The notes under the pieces were generated by a model. The model saw nothing but the letters and a program-made list of their open reading frames with translations. It ran no database searches and was not told the origin of the DNA. This document shows, piece after piece, positions 31,576-38,255 of a stretch of 64,000 nucleotides of DNA (the first letter of the stretch is position 1; each line of letters begins with the position of its first letter). Both the position numbers and the translations under genes were made by a program. The stretch comes from an uncultured Flavobacteriales bacterium (GTDB taxonomy: Bacteria > Pseudomonadota > Alphaproteobacteria > UBA8366 > JADFVY01), in assembly GCA_964347475.1 (NCBI GenBank), contig CAYFYY010000007.1, forward strand, positions 1,261 through 65,260. The letters run 5' to 3'.

Positions 31576-31768
31576 CACCCCGATCCTCCTGTGCCCCCCA
31601 ATTGGTGCGTTCTAGCCCATGGACTTGGCGGCAGCAACGTCGATACCCTGCGTTTTAGAGGCATTTTCGGCTTAACCGCCGATTCATACCCGTCGTTGAT
31701 GATGTTTCTTGGTCTCGACCGTTTATGATCCTAGGGTGTCCGGTTCGGAAGGCAGATTCACCGTGGAG

Positions 31769-34048
31769 ATGCGGGAAGTCAGCGCCTGCCTCGGCATGAT
31801 CGTTGCTCTGGCTGGTTGTGAGAGCACTACCAGCGATTCGCGTGCCTTCCGCAACGATAACCTGCCCATTCCCGATCCGCTGGCAGGTCAGCAACTGCCA
31901 GCAAATTTCGAGACCGCAGAATTCTCCGCCCAACATGGTCTCAACCAGATTGGCGCCCAGCATGCCTATGCCAAGGGGGCCTCTGGCGGCGGCGTCGTGG
32001 TGGCGGTGATCGACACCGGGATTCAAGTCGACCACAGCGACCTCGCCGCCAATGTTTCCCCGGACAGCATCGACATCGTGCGCGGAGACCCTGTCACGGA
32101 CGAGGATGGCCACGGAACGCACGTCTCAGGGACCGTCGCTGCGGAAAAGAACGACGTGGGGATGCACGGCGTTGCCTTCGACGCAACGATCCTGGCGATC
32201 CGCACAGATACCGTGATTGCCGACCCGGTATTCTGCGGCGGGCCCGCCCAGTGTTCAGTGTTCTATGAAGCCGACCTTATCAACGCGATTCGCTATGCAA
32301 CCGGCAAGGCACATGTGATCAATCTGAGCCTTGGCGGCCCGGTCCCGCTCAGCTTCCAGTTCGAGCAGGAACTGCGTCGCGCGATGAATGCGGGTTCTAT
32401 CATCGTTGCGGCCACGGGCAACGACGGAGCCACGGAACCCGGCTGGCCGGCAATGTACGCGGGCTCTCCGACCGTCAACACGAGCGGCCAGCTGATCGCC
32501 GTGGGTGCCGTTGACAGTACCGGCACAATCGCGGCCTTTTCCAACGAATGCGGCACAGCGAAGGATTATTGCCTCGTAGCGCCAGGCGTAAACATCTATT
32601 CGACGGTTCCCGGCGACGCCTACGCATTCTACTCCGGGACTTCGATGGCTACGCCGCACGTCTCCGGCGCGGCGGCATTGCTGATCCAGACCTGGCCGAT
32701 GCTTCCCCCTTCGGATGTCGTAAGCATTCTGCTGACCACGGCAACCGATCTGGGTGCGGCCGGGGTGGACGTCGTGTACGGCCACGGGTTGTTGAATTTG
32801 GACGCCGCAATGCAGCCGGTCGGCAGCCTGGCGATTCCGCTTTCCGGTTCCGCAACAGGCCAAACCGTTACGCTGGATGGTACTTCGCTGTCTCTGGGGC
32901 CGGCGTTCGGCAACGCGCTCAGCGGTTCGACGTTGCTTGCACAGGCTTTCGCCCTGGATGATTTCGATCGCAATTTCGTTGCCGGGTTGGACGGGCGTGT
33001 CGTTCGTGCCGACCGGAACTTCGGTCTCGACGCTCTTATGGCCGGCGGCATCCAGCCGGTCGAAGCCGCCTTGCCCAACGGCGCGAAAGTCTCCCTCGGC
33101 GCGACAGAGCAGGCGAGCGCTGGTCCGGGGTGGGACGCCATCGGCATGGCCTCCGAGCAAGAGGCAGAGCGCGACGTGCGTGGGATGAGCCTGGCGTTCT
33201 CGGGGAGCGATGGCACCGCCTACCGCATCGGCTATGACGTAACGCCGGCGCAGATGGTCGACGACATCGCAGTCACCCCGGCAGCAAGCCTGTTCTGGAT
33301 GTCTGACGAGCTTCTCAACCCGCAACATGGGCTGGTCGGGACTGGGGCGGCCTTCACGGCAAGCCGCGGGCTCGGTGCCGGGAGTGTACTGACCGTTGGC
33401 CTGGTCGATGAACTTGGTCAGCAGAGTGGCGACACCGGCAACGCGCGGATCGGCGAAATCGCGGTTGCCCATCTATTCCCGGGCGGTGCTGCCCTGACGG
33501 CGCGGTTCTCGCATGTCGACGAGCGTAGCGGCTTCCTCGGCAGCGACGCGGATGGTGGCTTCTCGGTCGAGGGGGCCAACAGCCGGTTCTACGTCCTCGG
33601 TGGCCGTCTGCCGCTCGGCGCGGGGGTAGAACTGCTCGGCAGCTACACGTTGGGAACGACCGACATGACGGCCGACGGGACTAGCCTTCTGAGCGACTGG
33701 AGCGGCGCCCGTGCCGATGCTTTCGGGCTTGGCATCGTCAAGGACAATGCACTGGGCACCGGTGGGCGGATCGGATTCCTGGCTGGGCAGCCACTGCGGG
33801 TCAACGCCGCCTCTGCCAACCTGACCGTGCCGGTCGACTATCAGCTGGACAAAACGGTCGTGCAGGCTTCCGAACGGGTTTCGCTGGTGCCGACCGGCCG
33901 CGAGATCGACCTGCAGATCGCTTATGACAGGACCATCGGGATCCAGGGAAACCTGTCGGGCTGGCTGATGATGCAGCTGGAGCCCGGACATGATGCCGAA
34001 GCGCCGCCAGCGTACGGCATCGGCGTGCGCTTCGCGACGGCCTTCTGA
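31769..34048 (+). CDS. S8 subtilase with lipoprotein signal and C-terminal beta-rich (autotransporter-like) domain
   Basis: LAGC lipobox; triad VIDTG, HGTHVSG, GTSMATPHV; alternating-pattern C-terminus ending in Phe. Confidence 0.88.
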   Translation: MREVSACLGMIVALAGCESTTSDSRAFRNDNLPIPDPLAGQQLPANFETAEFSAQHGLNQIGAQHAYAKGASGGGVVVAVIDTGIQVDHSDLAANVSPDSIDIVRGDPVTDEDGHGTHVSGTVAAEKNDVGMHGVAFDATILAIRTDTVIADPVFCGGPAQCSVFYEADLINAIRYATGKAHVINLSLGGPVPLSFQFEQELRRAMNAGSIIVAATGNDGATEPGWPAMYAGSPTVNTSGQLIAVGAVDSTGTIAAFSNECGTAKDYCLVAPGVNIYSTVPGDAYAFYSGTSMATPHVSGAAALLIQTWPMLPPSDVVSILLTTATDLGAAGVDVVYGHGLLNLDAAMQPVGSLAIPLSGSATGQTVTLDGTSLSLGPAFGNALSGSTLLAQAFALDDFDRNFVAGLDGRVVRADRNFGLDALMAGGIQPVEAALPNGAKVSLGATEQASAGPGWDAIGMASEQEAERDVRGMSLAFSGSDGTAYRIGYDVTPAQMVDDIAVTPAASLFWMSDELLNPQHGLVGTGAAFTASRGLGAGSVLTVGLVDELGQQSGDTGNARIGEIAVAHLFPGGAALTARFSHVDERSGFLGSDADGGFSVEGANSRFYVLGGRLPLGAGVELLGSYTLGTTDMTADGTSLLSDWSGARADAFGLGIVKDNALGTGGRIGFLAGQPLRVNAASANLTVPVDYQLDKTVVQASERVSLVPTGREIDLQIAYDRTIGIQGNLSGWLMMQLEPGHDAEAPPAYGIGVRFATAF

Positions 34049-34288
34049 CGCCGAATTGACCGGTTGGCCGCGCGCCGTGCTATGACGGGACGATCAGTGG
34101 CGCGGCGGCAGCTGCGGCCGATCAACGGGAAGTGATGGCGCCCCACCGTGCGCTGCTTGACTTCCATATTCGATTATTACAATCTTCTAATGAAATAAAG
34201 CGTCGGGGTCGCCTGCGGCCTCGCCGGCGCGCTCGGTTTCGACAATCTTGTCAGGGCGGGGCATTGACCTGGAAAGGAAATAGCGACG

Positions 34289-34783
34289 ATGTCGGAGAAC
34301 AACAACGCGAAGAGCATGTCGATCATCGTGACCAAGGGCTCGCTGGACTGGGCCTATCCGCCCTTCATTATCGGCACGACCGCTGCGGCGATGGGGCTGG
34401 ATGTCACGATGTTCTTTACGTTCTACGGCCTCGGCCTTCTGAAGAAGAAGCTCAACCTCCAGGTTACCCCGCTCGGCAACGCGGCCATGGAGATGCCGAT
34501 GCTGGGTGGCCATATGACGATGCCGAACATGGTGGGCATGTTGCCCGGCGTCGATAAAGCGGCGACCGTGATGATGAAGAACCTCATCAAGAAGAAGGGC
34601 GTGGCGTCGATCGAGGAATTGCGGGAGGCCGCGATCGAGTCCGAGATCCGCATGATCGCCTGCCAGATGACGCTGGACCTGTTCGAATACAAGCGCGAGG
34701 ACCTGATCGAGGGCCACGAGCTTGGAGGTGCGGCGACCTATATCGACGCAGCCACCAAATCCGACATCAACCTGTTCATTTGA
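34289..34783 (+). CDS. dsrE2: DsrE2-like sulfur carrier (DsrE/DsrF/DrsH-like family)
   Basis: TKGSLDWAYPPFI, FFTFYGL, KKKGVASIEELRE, IACQMT.DLF as in DsrE2 of sulfur oxidisers. Confidence 0.85.
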   Translation: MSENNNAKSMSIIVTKGSLDWAYPPFIIGTTAAAMGLDVTMFFTFYGLGLLKKKLNLQVTPLGNAAMEMPMLGGHMTMPNMVGMLPGVDKAATVMMKNLIKKKGVASIEELREAAIESEIRMIACQMTLDLFEYKREDLIEGHELGGAATYIDAATKSDINLFI

Positions 34784-34839
34784 GGCGGCATCCGGCCGAC
34801 CTTTCGCAACGCGACGCAATCAGCAAGGAGAAACCACAC

Positions 34840-35067
34840 ATGGCCGATCAGGTGCTCGACGCCAAGGGGCTGAACTGCCCGCTGCCAATACTCAAGGCGA
34901 AGAAGGCATTGAAGGATGTGCCCGCGGGCGGCACGCTGGAAATCCAGGCAACCGACCCCGGGTCGGTCGCGGACTTTGAAGCATTTTGCCGCACGACCGG
35001 GAACGAGCTGCTGGAATCCAAGACCGAAGACGGCGTTTACGTGTTCGTCATCAAACACACGGGTTGA
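34840..35067 (+). CDS. tusA: Sulfur carrier TusA
   Basis: LDAKGLNCPLPILK, ATDPGSVADFEAFC; AAGGAG RBS. Confidence 0.92.
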   Translation: MADQVLDAKGLNCPLPILKAKKALKDVPAGGTLEIQATDPGSVADFEAFCRTTGNELLESKTEDGVYVFVIKHTG

Positions 35068-35631
35068 CGGGATCGCGAAACGCCCGGAAAATATGGAAAA
35101 ATCATCAGCCGGCCCGGGATGTGACGCCCCGGGCCGTTTCTGTTCGGCAGTCCGAGTTGCCGCCAACATCCTGCAAGTATACGCAAGGCAGACCTTTGGC
35201 ATAACGCTCACGGGCGGCTATGTGGCCTGAATTCGAAGCAGTTTGTGCTGGGTTGTATTTAAAGTAACCGGCTTTTCGATTTGATCGCTTCCGCTCAGAT
35301 TGCACGCCTGTATGTCCGCTTTACGATAATATTCGCCAAATACATACCAGATGATATAAGAAAGTCCTTATTATTTGTCAAACAAACACGGAATTGGTTT
35401 CGCATGTAACGGACTGCTATTTGCAGGTTAACCACATATTTTTTTGCACAATACATTAGATGATGGTAATTTAGAGAGATATAACACACCGTGCTCGCTC
35501 GGTTCGGCGGGCATGAGCCAAGACAGGGGGTGCGTCTGGTGCTTCCGTCAACAAGCCAGGAAAGAGGGCCGTGGGCGGGATCTCCTGGGCACAGCAAGTT
35601 GGCATCTCGGTCTTCACACTCAGGAGGTAGC

Positions 35632-36885
35632 ATGAAGAAGGTATTGTACAGCTGCGCAGCGGGCGCGACCGCTGCGATTGTCGCATGCGCTCCCGCTCAG
35701 GCGACGGAGGGGTATTTCACGCACGGCATCGGTGCCGTCAACAAATCGATGGCCGGCGCCGGCGTCGCCACCGGATTCGACGCCATGTCGCAGGCGACCA
35801 ATCCGGCCGCGCTGACGCTTGTGGACCCGCAATTCACGGCGGATATCTCGCTGTTCAGTCCGCGGCGTGAGTACACCGCCACGAACACACCGTTTCTCGT
35901 CGCCAGTCCGGGGCTCGATAGCGATAGAAACTATTTCTTCATTCCCTCTCTGGCCGGAGCCTACGAAATAGACGACGTGTCGTCCTGGGGGTGGGCATTT
36001 TACGGTCAGGGAGGCATGAATACGACCTATGACGATCCAGTTGGACCGTTTGGCGGCGGAAAGACGGGCGTTGATCTCTCGCAAGCCTTTTTGCAGTTCA
36101 CCTACGCGCGTGACATTACACCCCGGATCAGCGTTGGGGTCAGCCCAATTCTTGCAGCCCAGCGGTTCAAGGCATTTGGTCTTCAAGCGTTCGACAACGC
36201 GACGAATTCGTCGAATCCGGGCAACGTTACGAACAGGGGCTACGAATTGTCGTATGGTTACGGCGGCAAACTCGGCGTGCAAGCCGATATCGGTGGCGGA
36301 GTCCGGTTTGGAGCTTCCTACCAGACACGCATGTACATGAGCAAATTCGACAAGTATTCGGGGCTTTTCGCCGAACAGGGCGATTTCGATATCCCGCCGG
36401 CGCTGCAAGCTGGATTCTCGTGGGATTCGGGCGCTGGCGTGACCGTTGCCCTCGACTACAAGAGAATCTTTTACGAGGCTATCGACGCAGTCTCGAATCC
36501 CCTGTCACCGGGTACACTTACGGGTACGAGCAATCTGCTGGGGGCGAGTGACGGCTCCGGATTTGGCTGGGAGAACATCAACTCTTACAAATTGGGTATC
36601 CAGTGGCAGGCAACTCCAACAGTGGCACTCAGGGCAGGGGTCGGGTTTAACGACAATCCAATCCCCTCATCCGAGGTTATGTTCAACATTCTGGCGCCCG
36701 GCGTGCAGGAGCAGCATTACACGGCCGGACTGACTTGGCAGCAGAGCCCGAACAGCGCCTTCATGCTCGGTGCCATGTATTCACCCAGCAGCAGCGTGTC
36801 CGGGCAGGATCCGTTCAGCGTGCACACCATCGAGCTTGAGATGTGGCAGTTCGAGGTTACCGCCGGCTGGACCTGGACCTTCTGA
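35632..36885 (+). CDS. FadL/OmpP1/TodX family outer-membrane transporter
   Basis: Signal peptide then TEGYFTHGIG, NPAAL plug motif, GFGW, terminal WTF; AGGAGG RBS; lower GC than the flanks. Confidence 0.88.
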   Translation: MKKVLYSCAAGATAAIVACAPAQATEGYFTHGIGAVNKSMAGAGVATGFDAMSQATNPAALTLVDPQFTADISLFSPRREYTATNTPFLVASPGLDSDRNYFFIPSLAGAYEIDDVSSWGWAFYGQGGMNTTYDDPVGPFGGGKTGVDLSQAFLQFTYARDITPRISVGVSPILAAQRFKAFGLQAFDNATNSSNPGNVTNRGYELSYGYGGKLGVQADIGGGVRFGASYQTRMYMSKFDKYSGLFAEQGDFDIPPALQAGFSWDSGAGVTVALDYKRIFYEAIDAVSNPLSPGTLTGTSNLLGASDGSGFGWENINSYKLGIQWQATPTVALRAGVGFNDNPIPSSEVMFNILAPGVQEQHYTAGLTWQQSPNSAFMLGAMYSPSSSVSGQDPFSVHTIELEMWQFEVTAGWTWTF

Positions 36886-36912
36886 CGAAACCAACCGACG
36901 TCCGTACGGCAA

Positions 36913-36939
36913 GGGCCGGGCATCGTGCCCGGTCCTTTT
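36913..36939 (+). terminator. Rho-independent terminator
   Basis: GGGCCGGGCA-TCG-TGCCCGGTCC followed by TTTT. Confidence 0.7.
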
Positions 36940-37081
36940 CCGTCAACGGCAACCGACGGGCGGGGCTGAGCCCTGAGCTGCGCAAAAAAGTGTTGTTAGG
37001 CAGGGATTGATTCCGGGTGGTCGCGGCGTTTCCTCCTCAAGAACGAACAAGAAGGTACGTCACCGACGTCGGGAGGAGACG

Positions 37082-37456
37082 GTGAGACGAATCAAGATCA
37101 CGATCGGTCCCGTCGAGCTGTACGCGAAGCTGCTCGACACGCCTGCAGGAGAAGCCATACGCAGCGCCCTGCCGTTCCTGTCGATGGCGCGGGTCGCCGA
37201 CAGTGCGGTGGTGTTCTCGGCGCCGGGGCCTGTCCCGCCCCATTCGGGACTGCCGGCCATGGGCCGGCCCGGCGATTTCGTTCTGTGCGGCAGAAGCGGG
37301 ACGTGCGGTATCGATTTCGGGATCGAACCTTTTTCGCGCAATCGCCGCCACGGCCCGCGGCGCTCGGGCGACGTCTGGGCGCGCGCGATGGGGGACATCG
37401 CGGCGCTGAAACACGTCATCGACGGTGATCGCGTGGCGGTCCACGGAGTCGAATAG
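37082..37456 (+). CDS. Cyclophilin-like fold protein (divergent)
   Basis: GTG after GGGAGGAG; RIKITIG.VEL.A.LLDTP..EAI..ALPF N-terminus; C-terminal ..L..V.DGD.V.V; middle appears degenerate. Confidence 0.6.
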   Translation: MRRIKITIGPVELYAKLLDTPAGEAIRSALPFLSMARVADSAVVFSAPGPVPPHSGLPAMGRPGDFVLCGRSGTCGIDFGIEPFSRNRRHGPRRSGDVWARAMGDIAALKHVIDGDRVAVHGVE

Positions 37457-37820
37457 CCATCAAATCCGGCACGTGGCGTCTCGTCGACGCCACCCGCCCG
37501 ATGTGCCTGTCCACTGGACAGATCACAATGTTGCCGTCGCTCCGAAGAATCTCAACCATGCGTGTCTACCAATCCCGGTCCAGGGCAAGCACGAGTCTTC
37601 GAGGCTGAGATAACGTCGGCCGCGCTGACGGCACCCAGCCGCGGTGATCGTGGACGTTATTGCCTGTATCGGCGTGGACATCATTCCCGAAGAATCGGCC
37701 CGGCATGAACTGCAAACATTTTGCGCCCGTCAATACCGCCGTGCGACATCGCGTCAACTGGCGTTGGCCGCACCGATGCCCAAATATATTAGATATTTCT
37801 AATTTTTTGAGATCAGGAGG

Positions 37821-38255
37821 ATGCCGATGGCAACGACGGCACGAGTCAAATGGATCGAAGGATCCCGTTTCATCGGGGAATCGCAGAGCGGCCATGCCGT
37901 CGTCATGCAGGGCCTGGCCGGGGAGGGGGAACCGTCGGTGGGCATCCGGCCGATGGAGATGCTGTTGCTCGGCATGGGCGGCTGCACGGCGATCGACGTC
38001 GTGATGATCCTGCAGAAGTCGCGCGAGGCGGTGACCGACGTGGTCGTCGAGATCGAAGCCGAGCGGGCCGAATCGGTGCCCAAGGTCTACAAACGGATCC
38101 ACGCGCACTACGTCGTCACCGGCCGGGGTTTGAGGCCATCTGCGGTCGAGCGTGCGGTCAAGCTGTCGGCCGAAAAATACTGTTCCGCCACCGTCATGCT
38201 GGGGGCAACGGCCACCGTCACGCACGACTTCGAGGTCGTCGAGGCGGACGGTTAG
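37821..38255 (+). CDS. OsmC/YhfA family protein
   Basis: RPMEMLLLGMGGCT.IDVV.IL.K, LSAEKYCSAT; AGGAGG RBS. Confidence 0.92.
   Translation: MPMATTARVKWIEGSRFIGESQSGHAVVMQGLAGEGEPSVGIRPMEMLLLGMGGCTAIDVVMILQKSREAVTDVVVEIEAERAESVPKVYKRIHAHYVVTGRGLRPSAVERAVKLSAEKYCSATVMLGATATVTHDFEVVEADG

Follow-up and report, generated by a model that had tools for sequence, protein, structure and literature searches.

By what route zero-valent sulfur, insoluble in water, passes the outer membrane of Gram-negative sulfur oxidisers is, to our knowledge, an old question that is still open, and a locus in the genome of an uncultured alphaproteobacterium (assembly GCA_964347475.1; GTDB lineage UBA8366, JADFVY01) raises it in a specific form. 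In a 64,000-nt stretch of contig CAYFYY010000007.1 (hereafter the window), genes for the cytoplasmic sulfur carriers DsrE2 and TusA are followed by a gene for a FadL-type outer-membrane channel, a protein family that passes hydrophobic molecules. Does the channel belong with the carriers, and if so, what might it carry? We find that the carrier pair, the channel gene and a nearby OsmC-like gene each stand behind the same conserved palindrome, and that the channel gene recurs beside sulfur-carrier genes, in changing order, in many other loci from unrelated bacteria.

Profile matches upheld the three gene assignments that an initial annotation had made from the letters of the window. On the forward strand, dsrE2 (34289–34783; PF13686, E = 6e-51) encodes a 164-residue sulfur carrier that keeps the active-site cysteine as its single cysteine (Cys125, in IACQMT) and scores above the cut-off of the NCBIfam DsrE2 equivalog NF047629 (222 bits against 210). 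The adjoining tusA (34840–35067, forward strand; PF01206, E = 1e-22, 79.8 bits against a cut-off of 28.6) encodes a 75-residue sulfurtransferase with the Cys-Pro-x-Pro active site kept (the CPLP motif, with Cys13 in NCPLP). After an AT-rich spacer of 565 bp comes the channel gene (35632–36885, forward strand; 417 residues), whose product matches the FadL/Toluene_X family PF03349 at 69.8 bits (cut-off 29.7).

By sequence search alone the channel protein gives weak matches to CymD and TbuX only. In its AlphaFold2 model (predicted local distance difference test 86, predicted template-modelling score 0.85) a helical segment at the N terminus leads into 14 long strands, and the top Foldseek matches are Escherichia coli FadL, TodX, TbuX and CymD, with E-values down to 5e-38, template-modelling scores of about 0.7 and about 16% identity. 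The likeness to these proteins extends from the PF03349 match and the predicted 14-strand barrel with its N-terminal hatch to a 24-residue signal peptide, a C-terminal phenylalanine and the Asn-Pro-Ala (NPA) hatch motif (N57-P58-A59, residues 33–35 of the mature protein), which together with G27-Y28-F29 is invariant in 37 homologues. As modelled, the protein is a divergent yet complete FadL-family channel, distinct from the canonical FadL encoded elsewhere in the genome (321 bits against PF03349). It differs from FadL, TodX, TbuX and CymD in its low identity to them and in its neighbours, which are sulfur carriers rather than fatty-acid or aromatic catabolic genes. In the sister genus g2 (L016:1501–4140, L010, L018) and in a genome of another alphaproteobacterial family (L177, in G631) the channel gene occurs in tandem duplicate, the copies being 52–60% identical to the query.

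The first link between carriers and channel lies in their upstream regions. Alignment of orthologous loci from four genera of the family reveals a near-invariant block of about 40 bp upstream of dsrE2, CTTGACTTCCATATTCGATTATTACAATCTTCTAATGAA, amid diverged flanks; to this block belongs the −35-like hexamer TTGACT (34157–34162, forward strand) of the dsrE2–tusA promoter. In the spacer between tusA and the channel gene the sole strongly conserved block is ACATTAGATGATGGTAATTTAG. When one block is read on the strand opposite to the other, CATTAGAnGATnGTAAT is common to both; this is the palindrome ATTA-N8-TAAT, extended to ATTAGA-N4-TCTAAT. A motif scan then placed three operators at the locus, each overlapping a plausible −10 or spacer region. 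Operator 1 (ATTACAATCTTCTAAT, 34176–34191) is one mismatch from the extended palindrome, overlaps the −10 region upstream of dsrE2, and is kept in G050, G052, G053, G055, G058 and G062. Operator 2 (ATTAGATGATGGTAAT, 35455–35470), upstream of the channel gene, lies between TTGCAC (35444–35449) and an extended −10 element, TGgTAATTT. Operator 3 (ATTAGATATTTCTAAT, 37788–37803), a perfect palindrome, stands about 17 nt 5′ of the ribosome-binding site of a gene for an OsmC/YhfA-like two-cysteine protein (37821–38255, forward strand; PF02566, E = 4e-16; NF008009, 165 bits against 138), a family-specific member of the regulon. In G050, G052 and G053 the half-sites of operator 3 are constant and its 4-nt spacer differs, a pattern typical of a protein-binding site. 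ATTA-N8-TAAT occurs at eight sites in the 4.68-Mb genome, three of them within 3.6 kb at this locus. At two mismatches or fewer the window holds three palindrome sites against 0.16 expected, a number reached in none of 100 shuffles, and at one mismatch or fewer the genome holds four against 0.5 expected, two of them outside the locus.

The initial annotation had proposed a SqrR-type operator upstream of dsrE2, at an ATTC-N8-CAAT sequence. This sequence is present at 34168–34183, overlapping operator 1 by 8 bp, and the idea was right in kind, because the 4-8-4 geometry of the palindrome equals that of the SqrR core operator ATTC-N8-GAAT (bioRxiv 10.64898/2026.05.15.721447; PMC9774250), from which it differs in the inner base. 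The register, however, was off, since the conserved element is ATTA-N8-TAAT at 34176–34191, eight bases downstream. The exact SqrR core is absent, and one-mismatch matches to it in the window (5 against 13.8 expected) are not above chance. In genus g2 the counterpart of ATTC-N8-CAAT reads ATTAGA-TTAT-TACAAT, two mismatches from the palindrome motif, and the site may be a second, weaker one.

The same annotation had presented the genes as a trio. The genes hold, but not the single unit: there are at least two transcription units, with U-run hairpins after both tusA and the channel gene. The first, a terminator-like hairpin followed by GUUUCUGUU (35106–35145, forward strand; −22.4 kcal/mol, z −2.9), is conserved in the window's family (f1), and because it lies 3′ of tusA, dsrE2–tusA and the channel gene are separate units. 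The second is an intrinsic-terminator hairpin (36906–36943, forward strand; −27 kcal/mol, z −2.9); a weak, sub-threshold Rfam match to the RNA SorX coincided with it and was rejected. Promoter hexamers and the placement of operators on −10 or spacer regions were read by eye, and the hairpins were checked by folding; a consensus promoter and terminator scan of the locus gave nothing useful. Between operator 2 and the channel gene runs a GC-rich 5′ leader of about 150 nt (35472–35631, forward strand), conserved within the genus on alignment and ending in an AGGAGG ribosome-binding site. An Rfam search of this leader returned no match, and the idea of a riboswitch there was dropped because its consensus fold is weak (−11 kcal/mol).

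The second link is the company that the channel gene keeps in other genomes. Within the order, the channel clade is limited to the window's own family (9 of 13 genomes), and there the order dsrE2–tusA–channel is kept wherever contigs allow. From samples of the order and the class we had first read the adjacency as a family-specific accident, a reading that was overturned by a metagenome scan. Among the best 80 of 585 homologues (39–67% identity, GC 0.37–0.70), dsrE2 or tusA lies within 3 kb of the channel gene in 33 loci and is upstream on the same strand in 20 of the 41 having at least 1.3 kb of upstream sequence. Any sulfur-trafficking neighbour is found in 43 of the 80, and in 19 of 31 when only loci of at least 6 kb are counted; such neighbours include split YeeE/PmpAB pairs (PF04143 and DUF6691), LbpA-like GcvH genes, rhodaneses and two-cysteine ArsR regulators. 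The gene order changes between dsrE2–tusA–fadL, tusA–dsrE2–fadL and dsrE2–fadL–tusA–arsR (gaps of 95 and 55 bp). For example, locus L170 has a DmsC-like gene, a perfect operator, rhd, tusA, dsrE2 and fadL in succession, which unites what in the source genome are two loci, and in L131 (43% identity) a one-mismatch operator precedes both tusA and the channel gene. In a FastTree phylogeny of the channel, without fatty-acid or aromatic transporter clades and unrooted because the canonical FadL paralogue is too distant to serve as outgroup, linked loci (42 rows, with 24 unlinked) are scattered over the whole tree, with 10–14 state changes.

Co-occurrence at the genome level points the same way. In the class sample dsrE2 is present in 3 of 5 channel genomes and in 8 of 395 others (Fisher p = 1.5e-4), and SoxY in 4 of 5 against a base rate of 24%; in the phylum sample, where dsrE2 was scored in 19 of 32 channel-bearing genomes, it was found in 18 of the 19 (ten families) against a base rate of 60/280 (21%), figures that overstate the association because related genomes are not independent. 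With the common operator and the recurrent neighbourhood of changing order, this co-occurrence supports the functional tie between the channel and the DsrE2/TusA relay that the initial annotation had suggested.

Two further neighbours of the channel gene came to light in these surveys. A secreted protein of about 305 residues, without a Pfam match and absent from the source genome, is encoded directly 3′ of it in 16 of the 80 metagenomic loci (e.g. L100:4404–5321). Elsewhere, split YeeE/YedE-type genes (PmpAB-like, PF04143 and DUF6691) adjoin channel homologues that have no dsrE2 or tusA beside them (L110:2026–2965, L115:4364–5241 and L192 in G743), which looks like a pairing of an outer- with an inner-membrane transporter.

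Does the regulon reach beyond the window? Rhodanese and Sox queries match nothing on the window's contig, as the initial annotation had stated for the window; the rhodanese that it found lacking is nevertheless encoded in the genome, on contig C11, downstream of a copy of the palindrome. Here the fourth-ranked site, with at most one mismatch, lies 17 bp 5′ of a gene for a 126-residue rhodanese with the active-site loop CCASGAR, and the site is also found in G050. Preceding the rhodanese is a gene for a DmsC/NrfD-like membrane protein, so that DmsC/NrfD-like gene, operator and single-domain rhodanese gene follow one another at G000:C11:68132–69512 (L072:2130–3513). This arrangement of membrane protein and rhodanese is conserved across families (L093 in G050, L084 in G091, and L170), and SoeAB-type partners are absent beside the pair. 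Another one-mismatch operator, kept in G050 and G053, sits between convergent genes at G000:C64:12236–12251 (L073:2537–2552), a position that may hold a small gene or RNA missed by annotation.

In other alphaproteobacterial families the motif occurs 50–170 bp 5′ of soxX–soxY–soxZ (G091, G236, G350 and G469), 5′ of dsrE2 (G350 and G469), 3′ of a DmsC-like gene (G091) and immediately 5′ of soxR-like genes (G250 and G469). The last observation suggests a candidate regulator. The soxR-like proteins of G250 and G469 are 56–65% identical to an ArsR-type protein of the source genome, G000:C48:6979–7452, and 41–50% identical to the soxR product of that genome's own sox cluster. The C48 protein, in which both sensing cysteines are retained, matches HlyU at 6e-28 and SqrR at 1e-24, and its orthologues (57–64% identity) adjoin dsrE2–tusA–fadL in metagenomic loci L114 and L130. 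From these likenesses we infer that it is the probable repressor of the regulon. A second two-cysteine candidate is encoded in the sox cluster at C29:41357–41830. The intergenic region between soxX and soxW (G000:C29:39990–40300; L076:5990–6300) carries a different AT-rich palindrome, AAATCAT-N11-ATGATTT, which may be the site of this second, sox-cluster SoxR.

The source genome is that of a sulfur oxidiser. Contig C29 carries soxB, A, Z, Y and X together with a soxR-like gene and genes of thioredoxin type. Also outside the window are a second soxY and three YeeE/SoxT-type genes, one with a tusA paralogue. An LbpA query gave a weak GcvH-like match only. The description of the locus as being without dsr, shdr or sox genes thus applies, as far as sox is concerned, to the window alone: the genome has soxXYZAB, soxR and two SqrR/SoxR-like regulators (dsrAB was not searched for). 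The search of the genome for sox and sqrR that the annotation had recommended located the sox cluster on C29 and the regulators on C48 and C29. The dsrE2–tusA pair seems once to have stood closer to such genes. Its orthologues in other families (67–78% identity) adjoin soxT/yeeE, sox and flavoprotein-cluster genes, from which the pair has therefore moved away in this lineage. At G000:C1:90596–92999 (L078) a tusA paralogue stands with genes for a 379-residue Pyr_redox_2 flavoprotein and two small proteins without known function; this same set flanks dsrE2–tusA in G172, G312 and G140, and an ancestral cluster has therefore seemingly been split.

The remaining genes of the locus are less clearly connected. 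An S8 peptidase gene (31709–34048, forward strand) lies 5′ of dsrE2. A cyclophilin-like gene (37007–37456, forward strand; PF04126, below its cut-off) is always found 3′ of the channel gene in the window's family, as also in L096 and L097, and is without an operator of its own. Downstream of the OsmC-like gene, on the reverse strand, are a DUF1287 gene and a paralogue of MsrA that lacks cysteines.

As a whole, these observations are best explained by a persulfide-controlled regulon with a channel that admits hydrophobic zero-valent sulfur, an explanation that we consider about equally likely to be right or wrong. In this model dsrE2–tusA, the channel gene and the OsmC-like gene would be three units each controlled through an ATTAGA-N4-TCTAAT site overlapping the core promoter, and with the C11 rhodanese gene would make up a small regulon. 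The repressor would most likely be an ArsR-type sensor of persulfide like SqrR, SoxR or HlyU, with the C48 protein as best candidate; once sulfane sulfur bridged its two cysteines, it would come off the operators, freeing every unit for transcription. The channel, a passive, hatch-bearing FadL barrel of 14 strands, would pass hydrophobic zero-valent sulfur (cyclo-octasulfur or an organic polysulfane) across the lipopolysaccharide barrier. Entry into the cytoplasm might proceed via YeeE/SoxT-type transporters, and inside, rhodanese, TusA and DsrE2 would carry the sulfur in persulfide form. We propose sulfur as the substrate because of two things only, the general role of FadL channels and the sulfur-gene neighbours.

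Several observations weigh against this explanation. Nothing in the mature channel, which lacks cysteine, points to sulfur, and the genome's own sox cluster has no copy of the motif at two mismatches or fewer. In the window's family the downstream cyclophilin-like and DUF1287 genes are equally syntenic, and adjacency there proves little because the whole neighbourhood, unrelated genes included, is syntenic. No sulfur neighbour was found for seven homologues in other Alphaproteobacteria (30–55% identity), and in the GTDB phylum species sample dsrE2 or tusA lies within 1.5 kb in 2 of 27 channel loci and any sulfur gene in 5 of 27. To these are added the non-independence of related genomes mentioned above and the fit of the palindrome to the consensus of NolR, which is no sulfur sensor.

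Much of the same evidence could be met by a channel that serves sulfur metabolism in another way, passing organosulfur compounds (dimethyl sulfide, dimethyl di- or trisulfide, methanethiol or alkyl thiols) or letting internally made sulfur out. Linkage and operator speak for this as much as for sulfur entry, the solved relatives TodX, TbuX and CymD pass small aromatics, and the direction of transport would follow the gradient because FadL-family channels are passive. The recurrent partners are, however, carriers of inorganic sulfane sulfur (DsrE2, TusA, rhodanese, YeeE/PmpAB, LbpA and sox), and enzymes for methanethiol or dimethyl sulfide are not among them, so that we hold this alternative to be unlikely. 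Still less probable, in our estimation, is a coupling that is regulatory only, in which the locus would be a stress regulon for sulfide or reactive sulfur and the channel would serve lipid or hydrophobic uptake or envelope repair without carrying sulfur. An OsmC-like stress-type protein under the same operator, the MsrA paralogue and DUF1287 gene next door, and the many channel homologues without a sulfur neighbour speak in favour of such a regulon. Yet an OsmC gene is a neighbour in 0 of the 80 metagenomic loci as against DsrE2/TusA in 33, and the channel gene sometimes sits between dsrE2 and tusA at 55–95 bp spacing.

Comparably improbable is a general regulator without a persulfide switch, an ArsR-family protein, NolR-like or of another type, that would bind the palindrome but be insensitive to sulfur. 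ATTAG-N9-AT fits the NolR consensus, (A/T)TTAG-N9-A(T/A) (PMC12445080), the structural relatives of the C48 candidate include NolR, and the genome has ten ArsR-family genes. In other families, on the other hand, the motif stands 5′ of sox operons and of soxR-like genes whose products have the cysteine pair, and cysteine-pair regulators adjoin the cluster in L114, L130, L129, L148 and L175. Lastly, chance inheritance of the adjacency in one family, the channel being an ordinary fatty-acid or hydrocarbon porin, could appeal to the synteny of unrelated genes in f1 and to the canonical FadL elsewhere in the genome, but is already disfavoured and very improbable given a neighbourhood that recurs at 37–70% GC in shuffled orders, dsrE2 co-occurrence far above base rate, an operator common to the units and only about 16% identity to the solved FadL and TodX structures.

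A persulfide-controlled regulon with a sulfur channel would combine elements that are each already known, namely the Rhd-TusA-DsrE2 relay, SoxR/SqrR repressors and FadL channels. The locus resembles the rhd-tusA-dsrE2 set of sulfur oxidisers such as Allochromatium vinosum and the TusA/DsrE3/Rhd cascade of Hyphomicrobium denitrificans (PMC11094781) in the adjacency of dsrE2 and tusA, their active-site cysteines, the single-domain rhodanese in the same putative regulon and the orthologues beside soxT/yeeE and sox genes in other Alphaproteobacteria. It departs from them in having its rhodanese on another contig and its carrier pair detached from sox, soxT and flavoprotein clusters, and in the outer-membrane channel as a recurrent partner, which is not described in the searchable literature. 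With the systems of SqrR (Rhodobacter capsulatus), SoxR/sHdrR (H. denitrificans; PMC10451225, PMC12423496), HlyU, YgaV and BigR it shares a 16-bp 4-8-4 palindrome that starts with ATT and overlaps the core promoter, two sensing cysteines in the candidate regulators and, in other genomes, the motif 5′ of sox genes. Its operator, ATTA-N8-TAAT, has A/T as inner base where that of SqrR is ATTC-N8-GAAT, and unlike in those systems the candidate cognate regulator is not encoded beside the locus. A precedent for the channel, compared by its description, is the FadL-family protein CT2230 of Chlorobaculum tepidum, which a preprint placed in a sulfide-repressed regulon and, from a promoter motif shared with sulfur genes, suggested as a transporter of hydrophobic sulfur chains (bioRxiv 10.1101/172254). 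The evidence is of the same kind in both cases, a FadL-type channel and sulfur genes under a common operator-like motif; phylum and motif differ, and no DsrE2/TusA neighbourhood has been described for CT2230.

A literature search found no publication joining DsrE2, TusA and FadL and no published SoxR operator consensus, and work on SoxT/YeeE import across the cytoplasmic membrane does not discuss the outer-membrane step. What is new at this locus is that physically separate units are tied by one defined operator, that an OsmC-like gene and a distant rhodanese come under this operator as well, and that a SqrR/HlyU-like candidate regulator can be named. The arrangement of three promoters thus yields ATTAGA-N4-TCTAAT as a defined operator for a regulator of the SoxR/SqrR type, and a channel for hydrophobic molecules that recurs beside cytoplasmic sulfur carriers, and here has their operator, offers a specific candidate gene for sulfur entry. 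The channel is thus an unproven, testable candidate for the entry of a hydrophobic, water-insoluble sulfur compound into sulfur-oxidising cells. More tentatively, and with more doubt than we attach to the regulon at this locus, we postulate that in many Gram-negative sulfur oxidisers this FadL-like clade may be the dedicated port by which cyclo-octasulfur or hydrophobic polysulfanes cross the outer membrane, induced with Rhd-TusA-DsrE2 via persulfide-sensing repressors. If this were true, a dedicated sulfur-entry channel would supply the first step that elemental-sulfur oxidation still lacks.

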